DNA from: an uncultured Bacilli bacterium
GTDB taxonomy: Bacteria; Bacillota_I; Bacilli_A; RFN20; CAG-449
Length of the DNA stretch: 64,000 bases
Direction: 5' to 3'
Assembly (NCBI GenBank): GCA_947629415.1
Contig: CANRDP010000001.1
Span: 11,290-75,289, forward strand
Position 1 is the stretch's first letter. Each line of letters begins with the position of its first letter. Below the pieces are notes generated by a model, which ran no database searches, was not told where the DNA came from, and saw only the letters and a list, made by a program, of their open reading frames with translations. Made by a program: the position numbers and the translations under genes. This document shows positions 12,064 to 43,873 of this stretch, piece by piece.

Positions 12064-13161
12064 ATGAAAAAAAGATTATTAGTTTTATCGTTAGCAGGTG
12101 TCGTGCTTTTCGGATGCAATAATGAAATTGTTGATTCGCAATCTGCAACATCAACGGGGGGGGGTACTTCGTCGGTAGGTACCACTTCACAAAATGCATC
12201 TTCAAGCAGTAATTCAGTAGTATCGGAAGGAAATAGTACTTCATCAAGTTCTTCGGTGTCTTCAAGTTCTTCTGTATCTTCAAGTTCTTCGGAAAGTTCC
12301 TCTTCACAAAGTTCTTCAGAAGAAGCGAAACAACAAGCTACCACAGTTTATCTTTTAGGAGAACAAGTTGCGGCAAAAGTAGATATGAAACCAAGCTCTA
12401 CCAATTATAAGTATTATTATCCAGCTAAGGGATTTGGAGAAACTTTGCCGGATTATTTTAACGAAAATGTAACTTTTAAGAATTTATCTGCGAATCAAGG
12501 CAGCGTTAATTCATATACATTCCCAACTGATGCAAAAACTAGTGAAGGATATAATGATTATGTGGCAAATTTGAAACAAGGAGATTATGTCTTAATTTCA
12601 TTTGGTATTAATGATCGAAAAATAGATACGAGCAAAAATCTGAATGGTGTTGCGTTAGGAACGGAAGAAGGACAATTTCAATATAATTTAACAAAATATG
12701 TAAACGAAGCTAAAAGCAAAGGAGCAACTCCGATCTTATTAACACCTTATGTATCTTATGATAGTAGTAAAAAATATGAAGCAAATAGTAAATATCTTTA
12801 TAACAAAGCAGAAACCAAGGCACACGAAGGAAATTATCCTCAGGCCATTCGCGATTTGGCGGAAGAATTAGATGTTATGTGTATAGATAATACTACTTGG
12901 ACAGCGGATTTATTTAGAAGTGCTCCTTCCGATGAAGACGTTCAAAAGTGGTATTGTTGGAAAAACTCTGAGGCAGATGGAAAACTGATGACAAATACAT
13001 TTAATGCCTATGGCGCACAGAAAATTGGTTATCATATTGCTGATGTATTGAAAAATAGTCAAAATGCTCTAGGAAAGTACATTAAGGATGATATTGAAGA
13101 TCCGACAGAAGCAGAATATTTAATAGCAAATACAGAAAATTATGTTAAAAGTAATAGTTAA
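12064..13161 (+). CDS. SGNH/GDSL-fold lipoprotein, a catalytically inactive paralog (CE12 RGAE-like pseudoenzyme)
   Basis: Lipobox signal MKKRLLVLSLAGVVLFGC followed by a 60-aa Ser-rich linker. It is homologous to the downstream gene, but GDS is replaced by GEQ (VYLLGEQVAAK) and DGTH by DGKL, so the nucleophilic Ser and the His are both lost. The track start at 12007 was rejected because ATG 12064 has an RBS. Confidence 0.6.
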   Translation: MKKRLLVLSLAGVVLFGCNNEIVDSQSATSTGGGTSSVGTTSQNASSSSNSVVSEGNSTSSSSSVSSSSSVSSSSSESSSSQSSSEEAKQQATTVYLLGEQVAAKVDMKPSSTNYKYYYPAKGFGETLPDYFNENVTFKNLSANQGSVNSYTFPTDAKTSEGYNDYVANLKQGDYVLISFGINDRKIDTSKNLNGVALGTEEGQFQYNLTKYVNEAKSKGATPILLTPYVSYDSSKKYEANSKYLYNKAETKAHEGNYPQAIRDLAEELDVMCIDNTTWTADLFRSAPSDEDVQKWYCWKNSEADGKLMTNTFNAYGAQKIGYHIADVLKNSQNALGKYIKDDIEDPTEAEYLIANTENYVKSNS

Positions 13162-13179
13162 TAAAAACAAAGGAAAAAT

Positions 13180-14910
13180 ATGAAAAAAAAGAAATTACTT
13201 GTTTTATCATTGACGAGCTTTGCTCTATTCGCTTGTGGAAATACAGGAGAAACGAGTGCAACAACATCCTCTGTTGCATCATCTTCAGTTTCTTCAAATA
13301 GCGAAAATGACAGTAGTTCTCAAACGAGTTCATCCGTTGAACCATTAAAGGCTACGACATTGTATATGATTGGTGATTCCACTTGTGCGAATTATGACTT
13401 AGCGACAAAAAATACAACGTATTACTACCAAATTCAAGGTTTCGGAACAACAATCAAAGATTATTTCAAAAAAGAAGTAACGGTTAAAAATCTTGGTGTT
13501 GGTGGTGCTTCTACAAAGAGTTTCCCAACGGAAGATAAGTCGAAAGAAAATTATGCGGAATTTAAAAATAATGTAAAAGCAGGGGATTATGCGATTATTA
13601 CTTTTGGGCATAATGATGAAAAGAAAACAGCTGTTGGTACACAGCTAGGAACGATTGCAGATACAATTACAAGCGATACGTTCCAAGGATATCTTTATTC
13701 CAATTATATTAAGGTATGTCTTGATGCCGGTGCTACACCGATTCTTGCTACACCTATTGCGCGTTATGATAGCAAAGGAAATTGGGAAGAAGGCACTAAG
13801 TACTTACATGTAATGACGGAAGATTCAACTTTCAATGCAGGGGATTATGCTCAAGCTATTCGTGATGTGGCTGAAAAATATTCCCTAACTTGTATTGATA
13901 CAACCAAAATGACAGGAGATGCTTTAAGAGCCCTAGGAGCGGAAGAGGGTAAAAAATGGTATGGTTGGCCAACTTCCACATCTTATGATGGTACGCATGT
14001 CAATATTTATGGAGCACAACAAGTGGGTTATATGATGGCAAAAACATTGAAGGAATCCACAAATAATTTAGGAAAGTATGTCGTAGATGATTTAAAAGCA
14101 CCGACAGAAGCAGAATATTTAAAACAAAATCCTTCATATGTTGAACCGACATATATAGCACCGGGAGAAGGAACATGGTCTAGCCATTGGAATACGACAA
14201 ATAATTGGCATGGATCTGTTTTCGGAGGAATGAAAAAAAGTAGTTTTGCCAAAGAACTCGATAAATACTCTATCACGGAAAATGGTGGAACATCCGCGGA
14301 TGGAACATTAAGTGTCACTTTAGCAGATACGGATCCTAATTACTCGGGAAGATTGAATTCGACTGCCGACGGAATGGTGATGTATTTCCAACAAATCAAC
14401 AAAAATGATTCATTTACTTTGGAAGCAAGCGTGAAAATCGATGACTTGACGAGTGATGCGGTACGACAACAGCAGAATGCTGTGGGTATTATGGTTCGTG
14501 ATGATATGTATATTGATCAATACATTTCTGGTTTGACTTCTCGTTATGCCGCGGCAGGATATTACGGAACAGCTTTTGATGAAGCCGGATCGTATACATA
14601 TTGTGCTTGGGCAAGAAGATATGATGATACGAATACAACCGAAGGAAAAAAAGATAGAATTAAAGAATCGTATTATCCTAAAGAAAATAGCACGATTGAT
14701 GTAAAGATTGTAAAAAATGATACTTCTGTTCAAACATATTACAAACTAGCTACGGATTCTCAATATCAAGAAGGACAATCTTTTGATACCGATTTAGAAT
14801 TAACAGCTGTGGATTCGGATTATGTCTATGCAGGTCTCTTCCTCTGCGGAGGAGCAGGAATGACGGCAACCTTTACGAATGTGAAGTTAACAATCAATCC
14901 TGTTGAGTAA
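13180..14910 (+). CDS. SGNH/GDSL esterase lipoprotein (rhamnogalacturonan acetylesterase/CE12-like) with a C-terminal beta-sandwich extension
   Basis: Lipobox LFAC. The SGNH blocks are intact: I MIGDSTCANY, II LGVGGAST, III FGHNDEK, V DGTHVN. A C-terminal domain of about 250 aa has unknown function and could be a carbohydrate-binding module (CBM). Confidence 0.6.
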   Translation: MKKKKLLVLSLTSFALFACGNTGETSATTSSVASSSVSSNSENDSSSQTSSSVEPLKATTLYMIGDSTCANYDLATKNTTYYYQIQGFGTTIKDYFKKEVTVKNLGVGGASTKSFPTEDKSKENYAEFKNNVKAGDYAIITFGHNDEKKTAVGTQLGTIADTITSDTFQGYLYSNYIKVCLDAGATPILATPIARYDSKGNWEEGTKYLHVMTEDSTFNAGDYAQAIRDVAEKYSLTCIDTTKMTGDALRALGAEEGKKWYGWPTSTSYDGTHVNIYGAQQVGYMMAKTLKESTNNLGKYVVDDLKAPTEAEYLKQNPSYVEPTYIAPGEGTWSSHWNTTNNWHGSVFGGMKKSSFAKELDKYSITENGGTSADGTLSVTLADTDPNYSGRLNSTADGMVMYFQQINKNDSFTLEASVKIDDLTSDAVRQQQNAVGIMVRDDMYIDQYISGLTSRYAAAGYYGTAFDEAGSYTYCAWARRYDDTNTTEGKKDRIKESYYPKENSTIDVKIVKNDTSVQTYYKLATDSQYQEGQSFDTDLELTAVDSDYVYAGLFLCGGAGMTATFTNVKLTINPVE

Positions 14911-15083: not shown

Positions 15084-15089
15084 AAGAAT

Positions 15090-15149
15090 GTAAGTGTAAG
15101 CACTTACAAATTTATTTATACAAACTTATGAACAATGTTCGGATATACG
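15090..15149 (+). promoter_or_regulatory. Bipartite conserved operator or leader motif, copy 2
   Basis: GTAAGTGTAAGCACTTAC at 15090-15107 lies 6 nt after the -10. TTATGAACAATGTTCGGATATACG lies at 15126-15149. Confidence 0.55.
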
Positions 15150-15173: not shown

Positions 15174-16373
15174 ATGAAATTCTTGGAAAAAGAAATTGAA
15201 ATGAACCTGGAATCATATATTACGGATTTATGTATTCGTTCTACTTATGAAAGACCTCTTTGGAATCAGGAAATATTGATGGGATTAAAAAAACCCGGTT
15301 GGAATTATATTGATGGTTGCATGTTCAATGGGTTATTAAGTCTTTATGAGGAGAATCATAATGATAAAATTATCGAATATATTGATCATTATATATCTCC
15401 ATTGATTGATGAAAACGGATATATAAAGATTTATTATTACAATAATTATAATCAATATACTGAAGAAGGACATGATTCGGATCCATGCAATGAAGGAAAA
15501 GTTCTTTTTACTTTATATGAAAAAACGCATAAAGAAAAATATCGTAAGGCAATTGAATTTCTTCATAAACAAATCGAAGAATTACCGAGAATCCAAGGAA
15601 ATTTTTGGCATAAAGAAAAATATCCCAATCAAATCTGGCTGGATGGATTATATATGATTCAACCTTTTTATGCTATGTATGAAAAGAAGTTTAATTGTGA
15701 AAGAAATTTCAATGATATTGTTTATCAATTAGAAAATTGTTTTGATTTGACCTTTGATAAAAAAACTTCTTTAATGATGCATGGATATGATGGAAATTAT
15801 TTAGATAGCAAAGAAAAGATGATATGGTCTAAAGAAAAAAACGGGCAATCAAAGATTGCTTGGCTCAGAGCTTGCGGATGGTATGAAATGGCTCTTGTGG
15901 ATACTTATGAATATATCAATCAACCAAGATTACAAAGTAAATTAAAAAATCTGTTACAAATTACAATCGATGGATTGATGAAGTATAAAGTAAAAAATAC
16001 GGATATGTTCTATCAAGTCATTGATAAAAAGAAAAAAGCAGGAAATTATTTTGAAACTTCCGGATCACTCATGATTGCATATGCGATTTTAAAAGGGTGT
16101 CGACTTAAGATGCTGACGAAGCGATATCAAGAAATGGGATTACGTATCTTCCGCGGAGTACTGAAAAAATATTTTTATAGGGGAAAAGATGATAAATTTC
16201 ATTTGGGAGGTATATGCATTGGGGCAGGGCTATCGGCGTCGAAAACCGATCGGAATGTTGGAACATATCGAATGTATATTTCTCGAAAAGTGGTTCAAGA
16301 TGATGGAAAAGCCATTGGACCTCTGATGATGGTATTATCAGAAATACATAGAATGGAAAAGGAGAGTGTATGA
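15174..16373 (+). CDS. Glycoside hydrolase family 105/88-like (unsaturated rhamnogalacturonyl/glucuronyl hydrolase), cytoplasmic
   Basis: 399 aa with no signal peptide. The (alpha/alpha)6 Glyco_hydro_88-type motifs WNYIDGCMFNGLL, IWLDGLYMIQPFYAMY, HGYD and AWLRACGWYEMALVDTYEY resemble YteR/YesR and UGL. Confidence 0.55.
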   Translation: MKFLEKEIEMNLESYITDLCIRSTYERPLWNQEILMGLKKPGWNYIDGCMFNGLLSLYEENHNDKIIEYIDHYISPLIDENGYIKIYYYNNYNQYTEEGHDSDPCNEGKVLFTLYEKTHKEKYRKAIEFLHKQIEELPRIQGNFWHKEKYPNQIWLDGLYMIQPFYAMYEKKFNCERNFNDIVYQLENCFDLTFDKKTSLMMHGYDGNYLDSKEKMIWSKEKNGQSKIAWLRACGWYEMALVDTYEYINQPRLQSKLKNLLQITIDGLMKYKVKNTDMFYQVIDKKKKAGNYFETSGSLMIAYAILKGCRLKMLTKRYQEMGLRIFRGVLKKYFYRGKDDKFHLGGICIGAGLSASKTDRNVGTYRMYISRKVVQDDGKAIGPLMMVLSEIHRMEKESV

Positions 16374-17890
16374 TGAAAAAACGATTCTTATTTTTAACGG
16401 GAGTATTGTTATCTCTTTGTGCCTGTGGGGGAACGAATTCCGAGATCCCCGAATCGCATCTTCGATTTAATAATATTGCAATCCGCGAATCCAAACTTGT
16501 AGCCGGTGCCATTGATGTTTTTGTTGAAACACTGGATAAAGATGTCGATATCTATTATCTTTTTGTGGATCATGAGGCAAAAGCACCTGCAGTTTCTCAA
16601 ATCATAGAGGGAAAAGACTATGATGGGGTGAAAGTATTGAGTTATGGTTCCGAAAAAGATATGGTTTATAAAACAGTCACCGGTTTTGATGAATTGGCAT
16701 GGATTGATTTTTATTGTGTACTTCAACAGGAAAATAAAATTTCGGATATCTATTCGACAAGCGTTATGACATTAGATGCTAAAGGCGTAGAAGATAAAGG
16801 AGATGGTACATTAGAAAATCCTTATCGTATATACACTGTAGAAGATTTAGAACAGGTAGGAGCAGAAAGTAGTACATTAAGTGCTTATTATGAACTTCAA
16901 AATGATCTGGATTTGAGTGCTTTTTACGGAGAAGAAAAAAAATCCTTTACACCTATAGGGACGCAAACGGGATCTGCGAAGGCATTTAATGGATCGTTTA
17001 ACGGAAAAGGATATACGATTTCCAATCTTTATATTAATTCAACTTCCGAATCTACAGGATTGTTTGGACAATTAGGTGCAGACGGAGTAATTTCTAATCT
17101 AAATATTGAAAATGCAAAAGTATATTCCACACAACAACGTACGGGTATTGTTGTAGGATACTCCAAGGGTACTGTGGCTAATATCAATGTAATCAACGGA
17201 ACGATTCATGGAACAAGAAAAGTCGGCGGTGCCATCGGAGATGTTTATGAAACAGGTCTTTGCAATCGTATTTTTGTAAAAGATACTTATGTCAAAGGAA
17301 CCGGTGATGATGTCGGTGGTTTAATCGGATGTGTTGATGCTACGGCAGGAGATACAAATCCTATTGAAGTTAAAAATAGTTATGCTATAGCTACGGTAGA
17401 AGGAACTAAGTATGCCGGGGGATTCATCGGATATGCCCGATGCATGCTTATTGATGGTTGCTATGCAATGGTAAATATTACCGGTACAGAAGGTGTCGGT
17501 GCTTTTATTGGAATGGCTCAACATCGTAGCGGTTCTCCGGTTCAACCGAAAGTTTCGAATTGCTTTGCTTTAAAAGGGCATGCCGAAGGAACATCGAATG
17601 CGGGAAAATTCTTTGGTAATTTTTCAACTTCCAATGGAGGTGTAGATACTTCAAAGATTTATTATAGTCAGATTACTCTTACTGCACCAACGGATAAAAC
17701 GGGTAATTATGGCCAGGAAATCACTTGGTTTAATTCTAGTAATGAATTGAAAGCATGGATAGAAAATACACAAAATATTCAACTGGATTTTGAATATTCT
17801 TGGGAAATTCAGGAAAATGCTTTGCGACCTACTCTGAAAAATTCGAAAGCATATGATGACGGAGTCACGATGAGCATAGGAGGAGAATAA
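16370..17890 (+). CDS. GLUG-motif right-handed beta-helix lipoprotein
   Basis: Lipobox LSLCAC. Conserved module GDGTLENPYRIYTVEDLEQVG...FNGSFNGKGYTISNLYINS, followed by repeated GG(L/I)(I/A)G turns (VGGAIGDV, VGGLIGCV, AGGFIGYA, VGAFIGMA). A paralog lies at 35246-37018. Confidence 0.5.
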   Translation: MMKKRFLFLTGVLLSLCACGGTNSEIPESHLRFNNIAIRESKLVAGAIDVFVETLDKDVDIYYLFVDHEAKAPAVSQIIEGKDYDGVKVLSYGSEKDMVYKTVTGFDELAWIDFYCVLQQENKISDIYSTSVMTLDAKGVEDKGDGTLENPYRIYTVEDLEQVGAESSTLSAYYELQNDLDLSAFYGEEKKSFTPIGTQTGSAKAFNGSFNGKGYTISNLYINSTSESTGLFGQLGADGVISNLNIENAKVYSTQQRTGIVVGYSKGTVANINVINGTIHGTRKVGGAIGDVYETGLCNRIFVKDTYVKGTGDDVGGLIGCVDATAGDTNPIEVKNSYAIATVEGTKYAGGFIGYARCMLIDGCYAMVNITGTEGVGAFIGMAQHRSGSPVQPKVSNCFALKGHAEGTSNAGKFFGNFSTSNGGVDTSKIYYSQITLTAPTDKTGNYGQEITWFNSSNELKAWIENTQNIQLDFEYSWEIQENALRPTLKNSKAYDDGVTMSIGGE

Positions 17891-17891
17891 A

Positions 17892-19904
17892 ATGAAAAAG
17901 ATATGGAAAAAAGGTTTAATTATTGTTTCATTGACAACGATACTTCCTTTCGTGTCTTGTAACGCAAATCAAGAAAATTCGAATGCTTCTACTTCGGAGA
18001 ATACAAGTGAATCAACGGAAGTAAAAACAAATTTTGAAATTGTTAAAGAATTTATGGATTCATTTTCCATTGATAATTCGGATGCGATTATTCAAAATAT
18101 TTATTTGCCGAAAAAATTTGCTTTGGAAGGAGTTGTCACATGGCAAAGCAGTGAACCGAAAGTTATCACCAGTGAAGGTCATGTGACACGAAATAAGGAA
18201 AAAGATGTTCCGGTTACTTTAACGGCTATTGCTATGTTAGGATCTACAAGAGAACAACGAGTGTATCATGTAGTAGTAAAAAAAGTAAATGAAACTGCCG
18301 AAGGCAAAATTGATGAAGCGATGTCTCAGTTTACTTTACTGGAAAACAACACGATTGACCGCGATATTATGGTTCTTCCTCGTGTCACAGATATTAATGG
18401 CGTTTATATTACTTGGGAAACTTCCGATGCTTCCATTATTGATTTAAAGGGAAATGTTTATCGGGGGAATGAAGAAAAGAAAGTGACTTTGACTGGAACT
18501 TTCTCTTATGGAGAATATCGTAAGAAAAAATCCTTTGAAATCGTTGTACAGACAAAGGCCGACGACAGTATTCCTGTGATCGATGAAAATGATTCTCGAA
18601 TTTTAAATAAAGTGTATGTCGCCAGTGTCGTGGATATTGTTACCGCGGGATTGGATGCTAGACCAGGTGATGCTATTATCTTAAGAGATGGTACTTATAT
18701 GAATGTGGAGTTTAATATTGAACGCTCCGGCACAGCAGAACATCCTATTTTCATTTTTGCCGAACATCCTGGAAAAGTGATTTTAAGTGGAGAATCAAGA
18801 ATCAATATTCTGGCAGATTATGTTATTGTCGCAAATTTCCGATTTGAAAACGGCTATCCTTCTAAAGATAGTGGTGTGGTTAATCTTGAAGGAAATCATC
18901 TGCGCTTTACAAACAATGTTATCAAAGAATACGAAATCCATGAAAATGATTACAAATGGTTATCTTTAAGAGGAAGATTTCATGAGATCGATCGAAATAC
19001 TTTTGATGGCAAAACGACCGGAGGATCTTTGTTAACCATTTGGAGAGATGATATGTTCTCTCAGGATCACCACATTCATCATAATCAATTCTTGAATTAC
19101 CAAGAAGCCGGAGGTGCCAATGGATATGAAACCATTCGTGTCGGCACATCTACTTATTCACAAACGGATTCCAATGTTTTGATCGAAAATAATCTATTTG
19201 AAAATATTTCCGGAGAAATTGAAATTATTTCCATTAAATCAGGAAGAACGATTGTACGTAATAATACCTTTAAAACCTGTAAGGGTCTTGTTACCGCACG
19301 TCATGGAAAAAATGATTTGATTGAAAACAATGTCTTTCTTTGTGGGCGTGAAAAAAGTGATGGTTCCATTGAACGTATTGATGATACCGGAGGCATTCGT
19401 ATGTATGATGCCGGACATGTTGTCCGTAATAATTACATGCAGGATGTCGAAACTTCTTCCAACACCCGTGCGGGAATTGTCGTACATTCGGGAGTGAACG
19501 ATTATGGTGATACAACCGTCATGAATCTCCAGTGGACTCCGTTTAATGTCTTGATTCAGGATAATACGATTATTAATAGCCGCAACAGCATTTTGATTGG
19601 AGGAAAATATAGTATTCCGTGCAAAGATGTTACTTTTGATAATAATCTTGTTGTTTCACCAACCTATGGTGCGATACGCTATGATAAAAATCCTGTAAAT
19701 CCCACTTGGATCAATAATCATTTCTATGCACCTACTTACTTAGAAAGTAATAGTGCGTTTAAAGATGTAATAGCTCCCGATTGGTTTTCAACGGCGATAC
19801 CGCAACTGATTAAAGGAGAAAACGGATTATATAAAATAGCAGAAAATTACGGCGCTTCTAATCTCACGGTTCAAACCAGTGAGACTACAGGAACAAATTA
19901 TTAA
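17892..19904 (+). CDS. Polysaccharide lyase lipoprotein with a PL6-like parallel beta-helix and two N-terminal Ig-like repeats
   Basis: Lipobox PFVSC. The motif GEIEIISIKSGRTIVRNNTFKTCKGLVTARHGKNDLIENNVF matches the PL6 (chondroitinase B/AlyP) catalytic region, with the Lys of IKS and the Arg of RHG conserved. Two roughly 90-aa repeats precede the helix. Confidence 0.5.
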   Translation: MKKIWKKGLIIVSLTTILPFVSCNANQENSNASTSENTSESTEVKTNFEIVKEFMDSFSIDNSDAIIQNIYLPKKFALEGVVTWQSSEPKVITSEGHVTRNKEKDVPVTLTAIAMLGSTREQRVYHVVVKKVNETAEGKIDEAMSQFTLLENNTIDRDIMVLPRVTDINGVYITWETSDASIIDLKGNVYRGNEEKKVTLTGTFSYGEYRKKKSFEIVVQTKADDSIPVIDENDSRILNKVYVASVVDIVTAGLDARPGDAIILRDGTYMNVEFNIERSGTAEHPIFIFAEHPGKVILSGESRINILADYVIVANFRFENGYPSKDSGVVNLEGNHLRFTNNVIKEYEIHENDYKWLSLRGRFHEIDRNTFDGKTTGGSLLTIWRDDMFSQDHHIHHNQFLNYQEAGGANGYETIRVGTSTYSQTDSNVLIENNLFENISGEIEIISIKSGRTIVRNNTFKTCKGLVTARHGKNDLIENNVFLCGREKSDGSIERIDDTGGIRMYDAGHVVRNNYMQDVETSSNTRAGIVVHSGVNDYGDTTVMNLQWTPFNVLIQDNTIINSRNSILIGGKYSIPCKDVTFDNNLVVSPTYGAIRYDKNPVNPTWINNHFYAPTYLESNSAFKDVIAPDWFSTAIPQLIKGENGLYKIAENYGASNLTVQTSETTGTNY

Positions 19905-19914
19905 CTCACCTTTT

Positions 19915-19934
19915 CCCTCTTGAAAAATAGAGGG
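19915..19934 (+). terminator. Weak terminator-like hairpin
   Basis: CCCTCT-tgaaaaat-AGAGGG with a poor U-tract. Confidence 0.25.
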
Positions 19935-19977
19935 ACCTCCTTTCTAGTTTACCAAACCCTTTTTGAAGATAGGATAA

Positions 19978-20005: not shown

Positions 20006-20011
20006 GGAAGC

Positions 20012-20067
20012 GTAAGTGAAAGCACTTACAAATTTTTTAAAGATATATCCGAACTTTGTTCGGATAT
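20012..20067 (+). promoter_or_regulatory. Bipartite conserved operator or leader motif, copy 3
   Basis: GTAAGTGAAAGCACTTAC at 20012-20029 lies 6 nt after the -10. A perfect 10-3-10 palindrome ATATCCGAAC-TTT-GTTCGGATAT lies at 20045-20067. Confidence 0.6.
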
Positions 20068-20102
20068 ATGGAAAAGTATTCAGAATTTCTTGAGGAGGAT
20101 GG

Positions 20103-20657
20103 ATGGATTTAAAAAAAGCAGACTTGATTATCTTTTCGTTTTTATCAATATTATTTGAATTTTTATCAAGCTATTTCTTCAATTTTCTGAATAGTGGATT
20201 TATCTTAAGCTTTTCCTTGTTGATTTTTCTTATTATGGCTCTTCGATGGGGAATAATGGGAATTGTACCTTTCTTACTTTCTGCGCTTCCATTAATTGCA
20301 ATGGAAAAGTCCATGGAATTATGGCAAAGCATTCTCTATTATCTTGTTGCGAATGTTTTCGCGGTAATTCCCATAGGTTGCTATACTCTTTTTTGCAAAG
20401 GGAAGAGTAGAAATGTGATGATTCAATCACCGGTATATCTTATTTTATTTTCTTTAGCGACATTTCTCAGTTTAGCTATTGGAAAATGGATTGCATGCAT
20501 CATCATAAATCAAGATGTTGCATCAATTGGAGGATATTTTATTTCTATGATATTTACGTATATTTTGACCATTCTTGTTTTATACGCATTATCAAGATTA
20601 AAAAATTCTATTGTAGCGGATATGGATTCTTATAGAAATGATGGAGAGGAGGTGTAA
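20103..20657 (+). CDS. Integral membrane protein, possibly a YesL/DUF624-like accessory to the CUT1 ABC transporter
   Basis: 184 aa with about 5 TM helices, first gene of the operon directly upstream of LplB/LplC-type permeases. The family assignment is a context-based guess. Confidence 0.3.
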   Translation: MDLKKADLIIFSFLSILFEFLSSYFFNFLNSGFILSFSLLIFLIMALRWGIMGIVPFLLSALPLIAMEKSMELWQSILYYLVANVFAVIPIGCYTLFCKGKSRNVMIQSPVYLILFSLATFLSLAIGKWIACIIINQDVASIGGYFISMIFTYILTILVLYALSRLKNSIVADMDSYRNDGEEV

Positions 20658-20659
20658 TC

Positions 20660-21625: not shown

Positions 21626-21646
21626 GTTGAAAGATTGGAGGAAATT

Positions 21647-34377: not shown

Positions 34378-34385
34378 GAGGAGTT

Positions 34386-37029: not shown

Positions 37030-39135
37030 ATGAAAAAGAGATATTTATTTTTGATTTCATTTCTTTTTCTGGGCCTAGTTTCGTGTAATACGACTGGTAA
37101 CACCGATAATACATCAGGAAATTCGGGACAATCATCCATTGATTTAGGGGATATTGGCAATTTGCCATTTTCCTCTAAATTTATCGGAGATTGGAATCGA
37201 CCGGGTTTATATGAGAAGGATGGTTCAGAGCATACCATGCCTGAAACACAAAAAGAAACGGGTATGGAAATCAGTGTCGCGGATTATGGTGCAAAAGCAA
37301 ATAACCCGGCGGCGGATAATTACAGTGCTTTTAAAAATGCCATTTCCAATGCGAATTCTGGAGATACGATATTTGTCCCCAATGGAACATATTATTTTTC
37401 TAGTGGAGGTAACATTGTAGGTGGAGCATATAAAGCCAACATAATCATAAATAAGGATAATATTACCTTTAAAGGAGAATCCAAAGAGGGAGTTATTCTC
37501 GTTTCCAATTTCAATGAAGCTGCCAATCGTGATGATTCAACGACTGTCATCGGTGCAGTTAATGTGAAAAATGTAACGATTAAAAATCTGACAGTAACAT
37601 CCAATACTTCGGATGATGTCTTGCCGGATCCGGATAATTCGAACTTGCAAACGACAACATATACTGCACCAAAGTATGGTATTACTGCCGCGAGTGCGGG
37701 AACGATTTCAAGTGCAGAAAAACAAGCAAGAAACATTCTTATTGAAAACTGTATGGTAGAAAAGTTCCAAAGAATGGGCGTCCGTGTCGCACAGGCACAG
37801 GAAGTCGTCGTTCGATCTTGTTCTTTCCAAAAAGCCACATGTCTTGGAGGAGGCGGCATGGGATATGGTGTCAATATTCAAGGATTCGGTCATGATTTCG
37901 ATAGTACGGATACCTTCGTAGATACTCGATTCAATGCCGTAGAAAACTGCAAATTTATTGGTCCTTATCTCCGTCATGGTGCTTTAATTCAATATTATGC
38001 ACACAATAATGTCATTCGGAATAACCAATTTGATGATTTGTTATTAGATTCTATTGATATGCATGGGGAAGATGAATATTCCAATGAAATTTATGAAAAT
38101 AAAGTAAATAATTCACGACGTGGTGCAGGAATCGGTTTGGGAAATACAGGAGCAACTCATGATGCTTCTGGAAGAAATAATTATATTCATGATAATATCA
38201 TTACGGGTGGACAAAGAGGTATTGATGTTCTTCTCGGTACACCGGATACGATTATTTATAATAATGAAATTAAAAACGTTTCTTCTACGGGAATCAAATG
38301 TACGAATGCCAATGGAACGAATATTATCAAAAATAAATTGTCCAATGTTGCAAGCGATGCTGTTACAGTAATGTATTCCTTTGTTTTCTCTGATCCAGCT
38401 TTGGGAATTCCCAATCATTATCGTATTTCTGACAATACTTTTACTTCGTGTAATCGTGGTATTTATTTTGATTCCAAAGAATCGGATTTTGTTGTTGAAA
38501 ATAACGAATTCAATGATATTGATGAAAATCTGAAAATTGTGGATGAATCCGCTGATTTTGTTTTACCACCAAAATCTACTTTAATGGATCCTGTTGAAGG
38601 AATAGATGTTTATCCGCAAGAAAATATGTTCATCACTATGGAAAGCCAAGATCAACCCGCGGTATATCAGAAAAATCTGAAATTGAAGACGAGTAATTTA
38701 GAACCCTTATTTAATCGTATTATTTATGCCTTATGGGATAAATCTACGATGCCGGCAAGTTATGAACATGTATATCTTTGTATGACGGCAAAAGCACAAG
38801 ATGGTGCTCCAACCATCAATATCTTTACGAATACAACGTATACCGATTGGAAAACGGAGACGATTTATTGGAATAATTCCAAATTGCATCATGAGACTTT
38901 AGCGCTCATTAAGAATACAACAGAGGATCCTGTCACTTCATTCGCGGATTTTACTTTCCCGATTGTTGAATACGAATTCCATACTTATTATCTAGATGTT
39001 ACCGAGGCATTTAAGACATTGCCTAATGGATTATTCACTATGGTATTTACCAATGAATCCATTGATGAATCTTATATGGAAATCTATTCAAATCAACAGG
39101 CCAATAATCAAGGTTTACGATTTATTTTTAGTTAA
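37030..39135 (+). CDS. Lipoprotein with a Pectate_lyase_3-type beta-helix CAZyme domain plus a conserved C-terminal domain of unknown function
   Basis: Lipobox LGLVSCN. The N-terminus DYGAKANNPAADNYSAFKNAISNANSGDTIFVPNGTYYF is the Pectate_lyase_3 signature. The helix carries GGGGMGYG and DSIDMHGEDEYSNEI. The C-terminal 150 aa are conserved with the next gene. Confidence 0.5.
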   Translation: MKKRYLFLISFLFLGLVSCNTTGNTDNTSGNSGQSSIDLGDIGNLPFSSKFIGDWNRPGLYEKDGSEHTMPETQKETGMEISVADYGAKANNPAADNYSAFKNAISNANSGDTIFVPNGTYYFSSGGNIVGGAYKANIIINKDNITFKGESKEGVILVSNFNEAANRDDSTTVIGAVNVKNVTIKNLTVTSNTSDDVLPDPDNSNLQTTTYTAPKYGITAASAGTISSAEKQARNILIENCMVEKFQRMGVRVAQAQEVVVRSCSFQKATCLGGGGMGYGVNIQGFGHDFDSTDTFVDTRFNAVENCKFIGPYLRHGALIQYYAHNNVIRNNQFDDLLLDSIDMHGEDEYSNEIYENKVNNSRRGAGIGLGNTGATHDASGRNNYIHDNIITGGQRGIDVLLGTPDTIIYNNEIKNVSSTGIKCTNANGTNIIKNKLSNVASDAVTVMYSFVFSDPALGIPNHYRISDNTFTSCNRGIYFDSKESDFVVENNEFNDIDENLKIVDESADFVLPPKSTLMDPVEGIDVYPQENMFITMESQDQPAVYQKNLKLKTSNLEPLFNRIIYALWDKSTMPASYEHVYLCMTAKAQDGAPTINIFTNTTYTDWKTETIYWNNSKLHHETLALIKNTTEDPVTSFADFTFPIVEYEFHTYYLDVTEAFKTLPNGLFTMVFTNESIDESYMEIYSNQQANNQGLRFIFS

Positions 39136-39147: not shown

Positions 39148-39178
39148 TATCCGGATGGATATTTTGTTCATCCGGATA
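39148..39178 (+). terminator. Hairpin after the 37030 gene
   Basis: TATCCGGATG-gatattttgtt-CATCCGGATA with a weak U-tract. Confidence 0.35.
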
Positions 39179-39259
39179 GACTTTTCCATATGGAATATCT
39201 TTCTATGTTACTAAACATTTGCTTGACATAGAAAGATATGTACAGGAAAGGAAAATTGC

Positions 39260-41719
39260 ATGAAAAAGAAAAAATATATATTACATATGTTCTTGACTCT
39301 CGGCTTATTTTCTTGTGCTTCTATGAATTTATCTGGAAATTCTACATCACAATATCAAGATTCGATAGTCTCAACAGGAGAAACAAGTATGGAAAATAGC
39401 AAGGATAGTTTAGATTCTTCCTCGATGTCTTCAACTTCTATGGTTACAGATGAATTCTCAAGTAGCAAGAGTTCTTCTAGTGAAATATCATCTTCTACTA
39501 AATCTTCCGATGGATCAAAAGTTTCTTCAAAGGATTCCACTTCCTCTTCCCGTAATACTTCCGATACCAGTGGATTAAGTTCGTCGCACAATTCTTCGAC
39601 TTCTCATAATTCAAGTGATAGTTCCATGAATTCAACAGAAAGTCTTACACCTCCGGCAGAAGATGAAACGGATTTATATCACCAAAAAAAAGATTATAGC
39701 AATTTATCTTTTGCCAATATGTTTCAGGGAAAATGGAATCGTCCGGGCCTTTATAATGAAGATGGAAGTATTCATAATATGCCTATCCCCGTAAAACAAA
39801 CGGGGAAAAAAATCGATGTAACTTCTTCCTCTTATGGAGCTATAGCAAATAATCCGGATAAAGATAATTACGAAGCTTTTAAAAAAGCTATTGAGGCCGC
39901 AAAAAGTGGAGATACTATCTATATTCCCAAAGGAAAATATTATTTTAAAAATTCTTTGAACAAATATGGATTTTATTCACAAATTTCTATTTTGAAAGAT
40001 AATATTACACTTCAAGGAGAATCGAAAGAAGAGACGATACTTATTTCTAATTTTGAAGAAAATTATAATCAATCAAAGAACACTACACTTATAGGAATTT
40101 TAAATGCTCATCAAGTAGCGATAAAAGATGTAACGATATCTTCTGTAGTAACCGATGATTTGTTACCGGATATCGATGATAGTAAAGCCAATCCAAAAAC
40201 ATATTTAGCTCCAAGATATGGTATTGTGGTTTCCACAAATAAAGAGGCTACAAAGGCCAGTGAACAGACAAAAAATGTTTTAATTGAAAATTGCATTATT
40301 GAAAAATTTCTCAGATCCGGAGTTCGTATTGATTGTGCTCAGGAAACTATTGTTTCATCTTGTACTGTTCAAAAAGCCACCGGTCTTGGCGGTGGAGGTG
40401 CCGGATATGGTATAGATATTCAGGGATATAAAAATAATTATAATGATTTAGTTGATGGAAAAGGTTATCTGGATACGTGCTTTAATGTTGTCACAGAGTG
40501 TCAATTTGTCGGCCCTTATATTCGGCATGGTGCATTGATTCAATATCATGCCCATAATAATCTCATACATAAAAATACATTCAAGGGAACGTTACTGGAT
40601 TCTATTGATATGCATGGGGAAGATGAATATTCCAATGAAATCTGCCATAATGATATTGACAATTCTCGGAATGGTGCCTGCATCGGTTTGGGAAATACCG
40701 GTGGTGGAGACGAAGGTGCTGCTATCGGAGGGAATCGTCATGACGCTTCGGGAAGAAATCATTTTATTCACGATAATGTTTTAAAAAATTCGAAACGGGC
40801 TATTGACATTATGCTGGATACTCCGAATACATTTATTTACAATAACATCATCGATAACATACAAACGACAGGAATTAAAATCACGAGTTCGCAAGGGGTA
40901 TATATTTTGCAAAATCAAATATCAAATATCATGAAGAATGAAACCATTTTAATTGATTATGATGAAATTAAATCCTATACATTAAAGAATTATGATATTT
41001 CCGAAAATACATTCACCAATTGTAAAACGGGAATTTATTCGCAGCAAAATATTACGGATATTACCGTAAAGAATAATAAATTCACGAATGTAACGACACC
41101 TGTCGGGGGAACGATTCCTCAAAATCAGATAGGGGAGACTACTCTTCCCGAAAGTGATGATTTTTTAAATCCTGTCTTTGGAAAAGAAGTATTACCTATC
41201 GATAATTCTTATATTGAATATAAATCTTTAGACACTGTTGTCACTTTAAATAGTACTTTAAAATTAAGATCGGGAAATGCCAGAAGTGATGCCAATCGAA
41301 TTCCATATCTTTTATGGAATAAATCAAATATGCCATCAAATTATCAAAAAGTTTATTTAAGTTTCACTATAAAAGTACAAAATGCAACGCCGACGATAAA
41401 TATTTTTACAAATACAACCTACACCAGTTGGTCCGGTTCGACGTTAACTTGGAATAATTCTAAATTACACCAGAGTGAATTTGCCACTATAAAAAACACG
41501 AGTGATGATCCGATAAATTCTTTGATTGATTTTACAATTCCCGAAGGATATGGTGATTATTCATTTCATACCTTCTATATAAATGTGACTGAAGCATTTC
41601 AAAAGATACCGAATAGTTTATTTACCATGATTATAACGAATGAGGCAAAAGAAAATGTTTATATGGAAATCCAAAATCTTAAATCCGAGAATTCCATGAA
41701 ATTTATCTTTGTAAATTAA
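39260..41719 (+). CDS. Paralogous Pectate_lyase_3-type beta-helix lipoprotein with a Ser-rich linker of about 110 aa
   Basis: Lipobox LGLFSCAS. Motifs SYGAIANNPDKDNYEAFKKAIEAAKSGDTIYIPKGKYYF, GGGGAGYG and DSIDMHGEDEYSNEI are shared with the upstream gene, as is the C-terminal domain. Confidence 0.5.
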   Translation: MKKKKYILHMFLTLGLFSCASMNLSGNSTSQYQDSIVSTGETSMENSKDSLDSSSMSSTSMVTDEFSSSKSSSSEISSSTKSSDGSKVSSKDSTSSSRNTSDTSGLSSSHNSSTSHNSSDSSMNSTESLTPPAEDETDLYHQKKDYSNLSFANMFQGKWNRPGLYNEDGSIHNMPIPVKQTGKKIDVTSSSYGAIANNPDKDNYEAFKKAIEAAKSGDTIYIPKGKYYFKNSLNKYGFYSQISILKDNITLQGESKEETILISNFEENYNQSKNTTLIGILNAHQVAIKDVTISSVVTDDLLPDIDDSKANPKTYLAPRYGIVVSTNKEATKASEQTKNVLIENCIIEKFLRSGVRIDCAQETIVSSCTVQKATGLGGGGAGYGIDIQGYKNNYNDLVDGKGYLDTCFNVVTECQFVGPYIRHGALIQYHAHNNLIHKNTFKGTLLDSIDMHGEDEYSNEICHNDIDNSRNGACIGLGNTGGGDEGAAIGGNRHDASGRNHFIHDNVLKNSKRAIDIMLDTPNTFIYNNIIDNIQTTGIKITSSQGVYILQNQISNIMKNETILIDYDEIKSYTLKNYDISENTFTNCKTGIYSQQNITDITVKNNKFTNVTTPVGGTIPQNQIGETTLPESDDFLNPVFGKEVLPIDNSYIEYKSLDTVVTLNSTLKLRSGNARSDANRIPYLLWNKSNMPSNYQKVYLSFTIKVQNATPTINIFTNTTYTSWSGSTLTWNNSKLHQSEFATIKNTSDDPINSLIDFTIPEGYGDYSFHTFYINVTEAFQKIPNSLFTMIITNEAKENVYMEIQNLKSENSMKFIFVN

Positions 41720-41728: not shown

Positions 41729-42727
41729 ATGAAAAAAATTGCATTTTTCAATGTTGCCGAATTAAAAAAATATCAAGATGGATATATATTATATCGCTAT
41801 CCGTCGGATGTAATCCGTACGCTGGGATATCACGAAAATGTCAAAGGAAGAGTAAAGGCCAAACTTCCTACAATGTGTGAGATGCGTTTTCATACGGAAG
41901 AAACATCTTTTCAAATGACTTTCAAAGCTTTGGATGCGGATAGTCATATACATCTTTATGTCGAAGGATTTCAATCAAGTTCAATACCTTTGAAAAAAGG
42001 AAAAAAAGAGAAAATTACTTTTACTCTTCACCCACGATTTGTAGAACATCATAAAGATGTCTCTGATCAAGATGGATATGATATTCGATTCATCTTTGAT
42101 AATTCTTCTCGGATTGTTTGTTATGATGTAGATCAAGAGGATATTGTAGAGGAAAAAAACCTACCTTATGTTCTTTACGGAAGTTCAATTTCTCAAGGTA
42201 TAGGAGCTCATGACATATTTCATTCTTATGCTTTCCAATTACAACAGAGACTGAATGTAGATATTTTAAATAAAGGATTATCGGGATCGTGTCTTTTGGA
42301 AAGAAAAGCAATCCGATATCTTTCATCGCTTCCTTGTAAAGGATATATTTTGGAAATTGGATGCAATGTTCGGGGAGTTATGGAAACGGAAGAATTTGAA
42401 AAGCGTTTCTCTTATCTTATAAATACTTTAGTAAAAGCACATCCAAAGGAACCAATCTTTGTCATTAATATATTGGATATGTTTGAAAACTTATATAAAG
42501 ATTTTAAAGATATTCCTTATCATCAAAAAAATTTGGAAATTATTCGGATAATTCAAGAAAAGATACATAAAAAAAGAAAAAAGAATTTGTATTTGATTTC
42601 AGGAAAAAATTTAATAGAAAATATTTATGGAATCAGTGGAGATTTATTGCACCCATCGGATATCGGACATGAAGAAATGAGTATAAAACTTGCTAAAATA
42701 ATTAAAGAAATATTAAAGGAGGATTAG
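41729..42727 (+). CDS. Cytoplasmic SGNH-hydrolase-type esterase with an N-terminal beta-sandwich
   Basis: GSSISQG (block I, Ser nucleophile) and DLLHPSDIGH (block V DxxH). There is no signal peptide. Confidence 0.45.
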   Translation: MKKIAFFNVAELKKYQDGYILYRYPSDVIRTLGYHENVKGRVKAKLPTMCEMRFHTEETSFQMTFKALDADSHIHLYVEGFQSSSIPLKKGKKEKITFTLHPRFVEHHKDVSDQDGYDIRFIFDNSSRIVCYDVDQEDIVEEKNLPYVLYGSSISQGIGAHDIFHSYAFQLQQRLNVDILNKGLSGSCLLERKAIRYLSSLPCKGYILEIGCNVRGVMETEEFEKRFSYLINTLVKAHPKEPIFVINILDMFENLYKDFKDIPYHQKNLEIIRIIQEKIHKKRKKNLYLISGKNLIENIYGISGDLLHPSDIGHEEMSIKLAKIIKEILKED

Positions 42728-42730
42728 CAA

Positions 42731-43873
42731 ATGAAAGAAGTAAAAGAGGTAAATCAAATAGTAGAGAAAGAAGAGGAAACATCCTTTATTTCTTTACGCC
42801 ATATCAATAAGATTTATGATAATAAAGTTCAGGCGGTATTTGATTTTAATTTGGAAATCAAACCATACGAATTCATCGTATTTGTCGGCCCTTCCGGATG
42901 TGGTAAATCGACGACGCTTCGTATGATCGCGGGACTTGAAGAAATCACTAGTGGTGAGCTCTATATCAATGGAGTTTTATCCAATCATGTTCCCCCGAAA
43001 GATCGGGATATTGCCATGGTCTTTCAATCTTATGCTTTATATCCTCATATGACTGTTTATGAAAATATGGCATATGGTTTAAAAATAAAAAGAATCCCCG
43101 AAGAAGAAATTCGCAAAAGAGTACTTAGAGCAGCGAAAATATTAAAACTTGGAGAATATTTAGATCGTAAACCGGGACAATTGTCCGGAGGACAATGTCA
43201 ACGAGTAGCTTTAGGAAGAGCTATTGTGAGAAATGCCAAGGCCTTTTTGATGGATGAACCGCTTTCTAATTTAGATGCTAAATTGAGAGTTCAAATGCGA
43301 GGTGAACTGGCAAAACTTCATAAAAGATTAAAGGCTACGACGATTTATGTTACTCACGACCAAATAGAAGCAATGACCATGGCTTCAAGAATTGTCATTA
43401 TGAAAGATGGTAGAATTCAACAGATTGGTACACCAGAAGAAATTTACAGCAATCCGAATAATTTATTTGTGGCTACTTTTATCGGGAGTCCGGCAATGAA
43501 TATTTTAAAGTGCAAATATCATAAAGGAATACTTACTTTACCTAACGGTTTTGAAATCAAATTAAAAAAACCATTCATAGATGCGTGCAAAACTTATTAT
43601 AATGATAAGGATGATAGTGAAAGAGAAATCTACTTTGGTATACGTCCTGAATGTATTTTAGAAGAAAAGAGTGCTCATTCTTTTAAAGGAAAGATTGTAG
43701 TAGCAGAACTTTTGGGACATGAATATTATATTCATATTGCTATGCAAGATCAGATTATGATTGCCAAACTTCCATCGACAAAAGAAATCAAAGTAGGAGA
43801 AGAGATTGATCTTTCATTTAATTTAGATAAAATGCATCTTTTTGATGTCGAAACAACCAAACGAATTCTTTAA
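42731..43873 (+). CDS. Sugar ABC transporter ATP-binding protein, MsmK/MalK type (copy 2)
   Basis: Walker A GPSGCGKST, LSGGQCQRVALGRA and FLMDEPLSNLD. It is a paralog of 26017-27111 with a 25-aa N-terminal extension. Confidence 0.85.
   Translation: MKEVKEVNQIVEKEEETSFISLRHINKIYDNKVQAVFDFNLEIKPYEFIVFVGPSGCGKSTTLRMIAGLEEITSGELYINGVLSNHVPPKDRDIAMVFQSYALYPHMTVYENMAYGLKIKRIPEEEIRKRVLRAAKILKLGEYLDRKPGQLSGGQCQRVALGRAIVRNAKAFLMDEPLSNLDAKLRVQMRGELAKLHKRLKATTIYVTHDQIEAMTMASRIVIMKDGRIQQIGTPEEIYSNPNNLFVATFIGSPAMNILKCKYHKGILTLPNGFEIKLKKPFIDACKTYYNDKDDSEREIYFGIRPECILEEKSAHSFKGKIVVAELLGHEYYIHIAMQDQIMIAKLPSTKEIKVGEEIDLSFNLDKMHLFDVETTKRIL

Follow-up and report, generated by a model that had tools for sequence, protein, structure and literature searches.

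The 64-kb window analysed here, a stretch of 64,000 nucleotides from the genome of an uncultured Bacilli bacterium, contains an island of 25 genes (12064-43873) encoding surface lipoproteins, an ATP-binding cassette (ABC) importer and cytoplasmic enzymes related to polysaccharide lyases and uronate-processing proteins. The original prediction had seen in it pectin signatures side by side with those of alginate or glycosaminoglycan processing, and had held the identity of the substrate to be unreadable from the sequence. The locus thus raises two questions, namely whether its genes form one system and which polysaccharide this system would serve. Because its promoter motifs are shared more often than expected and its synteny is kept in other genomes, the block is a real co-regulated cluster and not a chance grouping. 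Its central part, 20103-33209, is a cassette of fixed gene order found across several phyla, to which the surface enzymes are lineage-specific additions. Homology points to a uronate polysaccharide as the substrate, most likely alginate and possibly alginate of the O-acetylated bacterial type.

Co-regulation and the conserved cassette

The genes lie where the original prediction had placed them, all on the forward strand, and the intergenic gaps are mostly 0-15 nt or overlaps (Table 1). Three promoter/operator modules, P1-P3, have a common order of elements, namely a -35 TTGAC box, a -10 box, a 20-bp palindrome, a T-rich spacer and a second motif. The palindrome, TGTAAGTG-N4-CACTTACA, begins 5-6 nt past the -10 box and occurs at three sites in 64 kb against 0.14 expected, while the second motif, GAAC-N3-GTTCGGATATA, located about 20 nt beyond the palindrome, has four matches at three sites against 0.10 expected. 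Within the window both are confined to the P1-P3 sites. In P1 the palindrome TGTAAGTGAAAGCACTTACA (11939-11958) is followed by GAACTATGTTCGGATATA (11981-11998), and P2 contains the palindrome at 15089-15108 and the second motif at 15130-15147. P3, with its palindrome at 20011-20030, includes TTGACA-16-TAGAAT with a TG, the best sigma-70-like match in the scanned region, and its second motif is a full palindrome, ATATCCGAAC-TTT-GTTCGGATAT, at 20044-20068. Since the three modules share this architecture and a terminator-like hairpin ends the PL6 operon, the genes are predicted to form three operons of one regulon, one with the esterases, one with GH105-GLUG-PL6 and a third, long one running from 20103, probably as far as 43873.

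The only regulator encoded in the island is an IclR/KdgR-like protein, a candidate repressor that may bind one of the shared motifs. The second motif resembles KdgR-box half-sites, and the first LacI/cre-type half-sites. The 20-bp palindrome was not conserved in the loci of other species, which precluded phylogenetic footprinting; it could also form a hairpin at the 5' end of the mRNA. A perfect 10-bp inverted repeat, TATCCGGATG-N11-CATCCGGATA, is located between the two beta-helix genes (39148-39180) and could act as an internal terminator, as a site of processing or as a further operator; each half-site is similar to the sequence CGGATAT in the second motif.

Besides the ABC importer, the cassette encodes two lyase-like enzymes, a cupin, a short-chain dehydrogenase/reductase (SDR) and five small membrane proteins that lack annotation. 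A scan of GTDB species representatives with the binding protein revealed 74 loci, in which most cassette genes recur, usually with an adjacent IclR gene (Table 1). The carriers are Anaeroplasmataceae and other Acholeplasmatales, Lachnospiraceae (Lacrimispora, Hungatella), Oscillospiraceae, Sphaerochaetaceae and other spirochaetes, one metagenome-assembled genome (MAG) of Cloacimonadota, and Halolactibacillus halophilus. In some genomes (e.g. L078) the cassette is present alone, with no surface enzyme nearby, and PL6, GLUG and beta-helix proteins accompany it only in Mollicutes-type lineages (L004, L005, L061, L068 and L076). Annotation of ten recurrent neighbour clusters in the +/-10 kb flanks of about 60 loci identified GH105 (13 loci), PL38-like proteins (12), 2-hydroxyacid dehydrogenase and MatE (8 each), GDSL_3 esterase (7), a second GH88-like family (6), LacI (5), and KdgK and KDPG aldolase (4 and 3, among L047, L061, L066 and L067); no KduI/DhuI isomerase or sulfatase was found in these clusters.

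A mouse-gut Anaeroplasmataceae contig (L082) carries the whole gene set in another order, namely cassette, PL38-like, IclR, GLUG, beta-helix, GDSL_3, GDSL/PelX_N, a giant NosD-like protein and PL6. Since the whole set recurs there, the apparent mix of enzymes is a conserved functional unit in Anaeroplasmataceae. GH105 is found upstream in the related loci L011-L013 and L080. The NosD-like beta-helix protein of the mouse-gut contig (1850 aa, L082 15160-20712), encoded directly before PL6, is absent from the window. In a 2.0-Mb 'Clostridium sp.' MAG (CP091735.1, L065) three cassette genes, those for the binding protein and for membrane proteins 1 and 5, each appear to be split in two and both lyase-like genes are missing, suggesting cassette decay or long-read assembly errors.

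Table 1. Genes and regulatory elements of the island and adjacent genes. The last column gives the number of loci with the cassette protein or IclR (tblastn of all island proteins, E <= 1e-8, at least 40% coverage); counts are approximate, as many loci are cut by contig ends and 3 of 77 loci are one strain.
Feature	Position	Strand	Remarks	Loci
rpoC	6852-10760		upstream of island	
RimK-like gene	10836-11738	-	divergent, between rpoC and island	
Promoter/operator module P1	11905-11998	+	-35 TTGACA, -10 TATGTT; upstream of 12064	
SGNH/GDSL lipoprotein paralogue	12064-13161	+	Ser-rich linker	
SGNH esterase lipoprotein	13180-14910	+	~270-aa C-terminal domain; PelX_N on precomputed record	
Promoter/operator module P2	15055-15147	+	architecture as P1; upstream of 15174	
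GH105 unsaturated-uronyl hydrolase	15174-16373	+	YteR-type; stop overlaps start of next gene	
FN3-GLUG lipoprotein	16370-17890	+	FN3-like domain and GLUG-type beta-helix	
PL6 lyase lipoprotein	17892-19904	+	two aBig_2 domains	
Terminator-like hairpin	19914-19935	+	directly after PL6 stop codon	
Promoter/operator module P3	19978-20068	+	upstream of 20103	
Membrane protein 1	20103-20657	+	184 aa, ~5 hydrophobic segments	41
ABC permease, first	20660-21625	+	BPD_transp_1	65
ABC permease, second	21635-22516	+	BPD_transp_1	66
Solute-binding lipoprotein	22528-24603	+	691 aa, AlgQ1/AlgQ2-like, no Pfam match	76
Membrane protein 2	24667-25221	+	184 aa, ~4 hydrophobic segments	57
Membrane protein 3	25211-26008	+	265 aa; N-half soluble, C-half hydrophobic	34
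Cassette ATPase	26017-27111	+	MalK/MsmX-type	64
Membrane protein 4	27114-27635	+	173 aa	46
Membrane protein 5	27639-28169	+	176 aa	60
DSE/PL15-like enzyme	28171-30228	+	alpha-toroid and beta-sheet fold inferred from PDB matches	59
Hepar_II_III/PL17-like enzyme	30191-32113	+	cytoplasmic; likely start 30212	56
KdgF-like cupin (Cupin_2)	32110-32448	+	112 aa; H49-x-H51-x3-Q55 ... H89	52
SDR reductase	32460-33209	+		52
PL38-like lyase (Alginate_lyase Pfam)	33145-34377	+	cytoplasmic; likely start 33211; no signal peptide	
IclR/KdgR-type regulator	34290-35171	+	likely start 34386; usually adjacent to cassette	40
GLUG-repeat lipoprotein	35246-37018	+	second GLUG protein	
BH1 lipoprotein	37030-39135	+	AlgE-like right-handed beta-helix, CBM96-like C-terminal domain	
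BH2 lipoprotein	39260-41719	+	BH1 paralogue, 49% identity; ~130-aa Ser-rich linker	
Lipase_GDSL_3 esterase	41729-42727	+	cytoplasmic; GSS 151-153 and DxxH motif	
Second ATPase	42731-43873	+	MalK/MsmX-type, ~51% identical to first; ends island	

Components of the island

The enzyme and transport components were for the most part recognised correctly in the original prediction, which had described a uronate-glycan locus with surface lipoprotein enzymes, a CUT1-type importer and cytoplasmic depolymerisation. Eight products carry a lipoprotein signal, namely the two SGNH proteins, the FN3-GLUG protein (whose signal was read directly from the sequence), the PL6 lyase, the binding protein, the GLUG-repeat protein and the two beta-helix proteins. 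The expected PL6-like lyase is present: the protein matches Chondroitinas_B (PF14592) at 1.4e-58, and in the PDB it is closer to alginate lyases (1e-54 to 1e-33) than to chondroitinase B (1e-20). The motifs E442-I-E444-IIS-I-K449 and R470-H-G contain what we assume to be the catalytic Lys and Arg and the acidic Ca2+ ligands.

The importer consists of two BPD_transp_1 permeases, a MalK-type ATPase and a lipoprotein binding protein, as had been stated, but the latter does not support its reading as an LplABC-type pectin signature. Its best PDB matches are AlgQ1 and AlgQ2 (4e-32), followed by the glycosaminoglycan-disaccharide binder group of 5xs8 (8e-11), and the homology to AlgQ covers residues 293-605 and a second stretch. 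The content is that of an AlgQ/AlgM1M2SS-type importer, in which binding of alginate-type ligands is predicted. The binding-protein family is about 690 aa long, and every named member is 'hypothetical' (397 matches among 8000 candidates scored). The five membrane proteins, which the original prediction had omitted along with the second ATPase and the cross-phylum cassette, have no significant match in Pfam or NCBIfam. Comparison by hhalign found them mutually unrelated and not paralogues; only 85 relatives of membrane protein 5 occur among 1.84 billion representative proteins. The island encodes two ATPases and one permease pair, and the second ATPase may serve other transporters.

Two of the surface lipoproteins, the putative CE12-like esterases of the original prediction, are SGNH/GDSL proteins, but only one of them has an intact active site. 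In the protein at 13180-14910 all four blocks are present (GDS 65-67, GGAS, GHND 143-146 and DGTH 270-273); it matches PaeY weakly (2e-9). Its neighbour at 12064-13161 contains GEQ in place of GDS, which removes the Ser nucleophile, and has also lost the glycine context of block II and the His. Because of the loss of Ser and His it is probably non-catalytic, and it may be a glycan binder. Ser/Thr-rich low-complexity linkers follow the lipobox at 12120-12360, 13250-13330 and 39330-39660 and are presumably spacers keeping the enzymes off the membrane.

The beta-helix proteins BH1 and BH2 had been labelled Pectate_lyase_3-type, a label that Pfam does not support: they match Beta_helix/NosD only, with a CBM96 tail (PF24517) at 18.4 and 21.1 bits, below the cutoff of 26. 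Close homologues carry PF24517; fusions to PF08787 (Alginate_lyase2) and to discoidin domains occur in homologues at a greater distance, and PF12708 was seen only in distant homologues as well. Foldseek comparison placed AlgE6 and AlgE4 on top, and the C-terminal domain resembles the CBM96 alginate-binding domain 7vbo (TMt 0.80). A PDB sequence search with BH1 gave only a spurious match to an iota-carrageenase N-terminus. The motif D343-M-H345-G-E-D-E349 of BH1 is invariant. Of the two predicted GLUG-type enzymes, GLUG repeats are confirmed in the protein at 35246-37018, whereas the FN3-GLUG protein is below the Pfam threshold (E 0.49), its assignment being backed by 28% identity to the former and by its fold. 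The model of the FN3-GLUG protein has a predicted local distance difference test score of 92, and its only significant structural relatives are IgA1 proteases, via their beta-helix region; the GLUG-repeat protein had no match in the PDB sequence search. A catalytic signature was found in neither protein, and the view of them as enzymes was rejected, their structural relatives being limited to that beta-helix region. A binding or scaffold role for the FN3-GLUG protein is a guess.

The GH105 protein carries no signal peptide and is most similar to YteR-type enzymes (4wu0, 1.3e-65), in accordance with the predicted cytoplasmic GH105/GH88-family hydrolase. Of the two predicted heparinase-II/III-like lyases, only the PL17-like enzyme matches Hepar_II_III. 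The DSE/PL15-like enzyme had no Pfam match in our scan, and a precomputed record lists DSE-like_N. A profile of 27 orthologues of this enzyme matched human dermatan-sulfate epimerase (DSE) at 1.9e-35, followed by the PL15 enzyme Atu3025 at 3.4e-26, with PL35, PL15_2 and PL39 scoring weaker; with the single sequence the best match was a PL35 chondroitinase. H156, Y208 and H391, invariant in the 27 sequences, align with H311, Y365 and H531 of Atu3025, so that the catalytic His311 and Tyr365 of PL15 have their counterparts in H156 and Y208. The same three residues align with H205, Y261 and H450 of DSE, which we take to be catalytic, assuming a 22-residue offset between 6hzn and the full-length protein. 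Membership in PL15 is uncertain because DSE scores higher; a lyase is favoured, and a C5-epimerase is possible.

The second lyase-like enzyme, with invariant H215-N216, Y269 and H429/H431, matches solely PL17 alginate lyases in the PDB (about 1e-9), and its sole NCBIfam match is 'oligoalginate lyase' (NF042990, 44 bits against a cutoff of 1400). The two lyase-like enzymes show only remote kinship (hhalign probability 53%). In the PL17-like family, residues 57-82 include an invariant Cys cluster (C59, C78 and C81) and a nearly invariant H76, which suggests a small metal-binding insert; we know of no such insert in characterised PL17 enzymes.

The predicted cupin is confirmed by its Cupin_2 match. 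[quoted passage not shown] Similarly, the presumed AlgL-like protein matches the Alginate_lyase Pfam, but it is PL38-like, matching BoPL38 (chain set 8bdq/9fht...) at 3e-43. Its N250-H251 and R299...Y305 correspond by eye, at equal spacing, to N242-H243 and R292...Y298 of BoPL38, the catalytic roles of which have been described (bioRxiv 10.1101/2024.12.11.627697).

The island is located between rpoC and housekeeping genes. The upstream flank encodes L1, L10, a methyltransferase, RpoB (assigned by position) and RpoC, and the downstream flank thymidine kinase, RNase R, SmpB, Opp and FeoB. Just downstream of the island, at 44185-47952, there are also a 252-aa protein without annotation and an ABC system made up of an FtsX-type permease, an ABC ATPase and a second FtsX-type permease, which show no link to the island. 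Recent horizontal acquisition was rejected, since the GC content of the island is like that of its flanks, no tRNA was found in the window and no integrase match was obtained among the ORFs scanned. Genetic code 4 was likewise rejected on account of the long intact ORFs under table 11. Two metagenome assemblies in ENA and one in Logan contain the same DNA. At the species level, rabbit and human (Hadza) guts supply the nearest relatives, which are MAGs of uncultured Bacilli, Erysipelotrichaceae, Mollicutes and Anaeroplasmataceae, and a fish-gut relative is classified as Acholeplasmatales; Anaeroplasmataceae. The description of the locus as Gram-positive is loose, the nearest relatives being Anaeroplasmataceae (order Acholeplasmatales).

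Alginate and the alternatives

Alginate-related proteins rank first for PL6, the binding protein, the PL38-like and PL17-like enzymes and the fold of the beta-helix proteins. Alginate is also suggested by the PL15-like enzyme and the SDR, and by two traits of the beta-helix proteins, namely their CBM96-like tail and the fusion of their homologues to PL7. Two families of endo-acting alginate lyases, PL6 and PL38-like, are represented at the family level. Together, PL6, the binding protein, the PL38-like, PL15/PL17-like enzymes and the SDR point to alginate, so that the substrate is less unreadable than the original prediction had held, and the pectin-type signal shrinks to GH105 and the SGNH esterases. 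Conversion of alginate-derived DEH to 2-keto-3-deoxygluconate (KDG) requires a reductase only, while unsaturated glucuronate or galacturonate, released from glycosaminoglycans, pectin or glucuronan, requires an isomerase. Pathway chemistry fits alginate, because the cupin and SDR accompany the cassette and no isomerase was seen beside it in the neighbour clusters annotated; KdgK and KDPG aldolase genes, in turn, adjoin it in 3-4 loci. Four hindgut MAGs of Kyphosus sydneyanus carry the binding-protein family, as do an Epulopiscium MAG and Halolactibacillus, and the Anaeroplasmataceae MAG FM_42 from this fish carries GLUG-PL6 and the cassette (L069, L076). An oligo-alginate lyase of FM_42, and Bacilli transcripts directed mainly at alginate, have been reported for this consumer of brown algae (PMC11333855). 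Alginate loci are also kept in ruminants naive to seaweed, and those of Bacteroidota occur in gut microbiomes not exposed to it (PMC13377030, PMC11381880).

Several findings weigh against alginate. The substrate assignment is drawn from homology at 15-35% identity or from fold. GH105 is part of the PL6 operon, under the shared promoter type, and in gut Acholeplasmatales the cassette is accompanied by GH105, by another GH88-like family and by cytoplasmic esterases. Exolyases can degrade alginate without an unsaturated-uronyl hydrolase, and alginate from algae carries no acetyl groups; a second GH88-like family and esterases, whether cytoplasmic or at the surface, would not be expected for it. 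The DSE/PL15-like enzyme scores best against DSE in profile searches and against PL35 as a single sequence. The CBM96 matches are below the cutoff, and domains of the CBM96/DNRLRE type also occur in hyaluronate and pectate lyases, which weakens their value as proof of alginate binding. Most carriers stem from digesters and terrestrial guts. That kduI is absent beside the cassette holds for the recurrent neighbour clusters of the +/-10 kb flanks, and kdgK and kdgA are also absent from the 64-kb window. Given the presence of GH105, GH88-like proteins and esterases and the DSE-best score, we therefore place alginate only a little above even. An O-acetylated alginate or a heteropolymer may account for GH105 and the SGNH esterases; the presence of esterases makes an acetylated substrate plausible, as originally proposed.

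These enzymes would find a place if the substrate were another acidic heteropolymer with acetyl groups, built of a uronic acid in alternation with an amino sugar or a neutral one. Such a polymer might be a plant glycan resembling rhamnogalacturonan, a chain of the glycosaminoglycan type without sulfate, or the capsule or exopolysaccharide of a bacterium. Lyases would then leave unsaturated-uronyl-sugar ends, which hydrolases of the GH105/GH88 type would clear in the cytoplasm after deacetylation. This agrees with the YteR-type GH105 (1e-65 to 4wu0), which is translationally coupled to GLUG-PL6 under a shared promoter module, with the recurrence of GH105, the second GH88-like family and GDSL_3 esterases beside the cassette, and with the proximity of the DSE/PL15-like enzyme to DSE and PL35; the occurrence of CBM96-type domains in hyaluronate and pectate lyases and the prevalence of gut and digester anaerobes among the carriers are in line with it too. 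However, the Pfam scan of the window revealed no PL4/PL11/PL26-type lyase, GH28, rhamnosidase, hexosaminidase or sulfatase, and unsaturated glucuronate or galacturonate would need KduI or DhuI, neither of which was among the recurrent neighbours annotated for about 60 loci, although 52 loci contain the cupin and SDR. PL6, the PL38-like and PL17-like enzymes, the binding protein, the SDR and the beta-helix proteins, moreover, all rank alginate proteins first, and we regard a heteropolymer as rather unlikely. More specific versions of the idea were rejected. A pectin or rhamnogalacturonan I (RG-I) locus would have only GH105 and the SGNH esterases in its support, without PL1/3/4/9/11/26, GH28, rhamnosidase or KduI in the Pfam scan, and the original statement that this is not the canonical Firmicute pectin/RG-I locus stands. 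A glycosaminoglycan locus is disfavoured by the lack of a sulfatase and isomerase in the window and in the neighbour clusters annotated, by a PL6 enzyme nearer to alginate lyases and by the YteR type of the GH105 hydrolase. The predicted absence of sulfatase, KduI, KdgK and KdgA genes holds for those ORFs of the window that are 150 aa or longer.

The two signals might also belong to two substrates, the cassette serving alginate-type oligouronates, and GH105, GH88-like proteins and SGNH esterases a second, pectin-like acetylated glycan that shares the regulator and importer. The cassette does stand alone in many genomes (e.g. L078), and GH105 and GDSL_3 occur only in loci of the gut Acholeplasmatales type, being missing from the L061 and L068 stretches, which are presumed marine. 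Against such a composite, both operator motifs are common to all three operons, GH105 is in the operon of PL6, the island encodes a single binding protein and a single permease pair, and Pfam identified no pectin-specific depolymerase in it, which makes it very unlikely. That the genes are chance neighbours from unrelated pathways is extremely improbable: the superficially mixed Pfam labels would be its only basis, and the single strand, overlapping stops and starts, shared operators and synteny across dozens of species contradict it. A more far-reaching proposal, which we consider quite unlikely when all its parts are taken jointly, is that 20103-33209 is an undescribed multi-phylum polyuronate import-digestion machine. 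Its transporter would rely on four or five dedicated accessory membrane subunits without family assignment, and its lyase-like pair would found new PL families, or one of the pair would be an oligo-uronate C5-epimerase. In gut Anaeroplasmataceae it would have recruited GH105/GH88-like enzymes and esterases, whose activity, so far unreported, would be to hydrolyse the unsaturated mannuronosyl or guluronosyl ends of oligosaccharides from O-acetylated alginate.

A possible pathway and its relation to known systems

If alginate is the substrate, PL6, the two AlgE-like proteins, the two GLUG proteins and the active and inactive SGNH proteins would bind, deacetylate and cut the polymer outside the cell. 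The AlgQ-like lipoprotein would hand the oligosaccharides to the CUT1-type importer, which is encoded with the five membrane proteins; the selfish uptake of large oligosaccharides proposed in the original prediction is putative. In the cytoplasm, the GDSL_3 esterase and the PL38-like, PL15-like and PL17-like enzymes would produce unsaturated monomers, while GH105 may take off unsaturated ends refractory to the lyases. The KdgF-like cupin and SDR would turn DEH into KDG, to be used by a KDG kinase and aldolase that would be encoded elsewhere in the genome. P1-P3 would join the three operons in one regulon, with the IclR/KdgR-like protein as the candidate repressor.

Part of this scheme is of an already known kind, since ABC import followed by cytoplasmic lysis is found in Sphingomonas sp. 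A1, and the PL6/PL17/PL38 palette in the alginate utilisation loci of Bacteroidota. The Sphingomonas system comprises AlgQ1/AlgQ2, the ABC importer AlgM1M2SS, cytoplasmic lyases including the PL15 enzyme A1-IV, and the DEH reductases A1-R and A1-R'. The island resembles it in the homologous binding protein, two permeases and MalK-type ATPase, in the predicted import of chains before their lysis, in the cytoplasmic finish by a PL15-like enzyme and in an SDR nearest to A1-R'/A1-R. Unlike Sphingomonas, there is no Gram-negative envelope or 'pit'; the enzymes, like the binding protein, are lipoproteins, and the latter has some 200 aa more. Five further conserved membrane proteins are encoded, and the PL15-like enzyme, a very distant relative, obtains a better score with DSE. 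PL6, PL38-like, AlgE-like, GLUG, GH105, esterases and the KdgF-like cupin are added.

Alginate loci of Bacteroidota also carry an SDR. They have a core of PL6 and PL17 with PL38 or PL7 as ancillary enzymes (PMC13377030, PMC11381880), a palette that overlaps with the PL6, PL17-type and PL38-like enzymes of the island, and KdgF has been discussed for them (PMC11381880). However, they rely on SusC/D uptake and periplasmic processing, whereas the island would use ABC uptake and cytoplasmic processing; BoPL38 is secreted, while the PL38-like protein has no signal peptide, and the PL17-like enzyme reaches only about 1e-9 against PL17. The pathway of Firmicutes (Defluviitalea phaphyphila, Bacillus weihaiensis) shares with the island ABC uptake of oligomers in monoderms, and Dp0100, a lyase of D. 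phaphyphila, is the protein in which CBM96 was defined. According to a 2021 review (PMC8286568), Firmicute alginate genes are scattered and the pathway still needs genetic investigation, in contrast to the compact regulon around the cassette; the Defluviitalea ethanol paper gives no gene-cluster detail.

The RG-I clusters of B. subtilis contain the PL11 lyases YesW/YesX, the GH105 hydrolases YesR/YteR, CE12 esterases and LplABC-type importers. Similarities are limited to the YteR-type GH105, SGNH esterases, an LplA/AlgQ-type lipoprotein and an IclR/KdgR-like regulator; the island lacks PL11, PL4, PL26, GH28/GH42/rhamnosidase and the KduI/KduD pair, and has instead PL6, PL38-like, PL15-like and PL17-like enzymes, the cupin and the SDR. 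For two protein families the likeness is to epimerases. BH1 shares 17% identity with AlgE-type mannuronan C5-epimerases (AlgE4 2pyg, 8ja4) without a sequence-level PDB match, and its CBM96-like tail and lipoprotein anchor differ from the R-modules of AlgE. The catalytic pair of AlgE is Y149/H154 (bioRxiv 10.1101/2024.12.11.627697), and the BH1 motif L-D-S-I-D-M-H-G-E-D-E has, in our own positional mapping, no Tyr at the place of Tyr149. The DSE/PL15-like family has in human DSE (6hzn) its best profile match, extending over about 500 residues. Unlike DSE, it is bacterial and cytoplasmic and is encoded in a catabolic operon beside the KdgF-like cupin and SDR, and its DSE-aligned residues are the lyase machinery in PL15.

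The novelty resides in the host of Anaeroplasmataceae type and the compactness of the regulon, in a cross-phylum cassette that includes five membrane proteins without annotation, and in a very divergent enzyme pair of the PL15/PL17/DSE superfamily; the AlgE-like lipoproteins and the association with GH105 and esterases are new as well. No published characterisation of the cassette was found in the searchable literature, and literature searches for alginate-degrading Lacrimispora, and for Mollicutes or Acholeplasmatales with alginate lyase, returned no relevant paper. How alginate is used has been elucidated in detail for Proteobacteria and Bacteroidota and less so for monoderms. The locus represents a compact, co-regulated candidate system in gut Bacilli of the wall-less type, and no fewer than 50-60 GTDB species possess its core cassette. 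Cultured carriers are found in Lacrimispora (Lacrimispora sp. HJ-01, NZ_CP173277, and L. defluvii PI-S10-B5A), Clostridium (Clostridium sp. MCC353 and chh4-2) and Halolactibacillus (H. halophilus DSM 17073). Such a system would help to explain which gut bacteria other than Bacteroidota consume alginate or its oligosaccharides, for which food additives, seaweed feeds and bacterial biofilms are possible sources.

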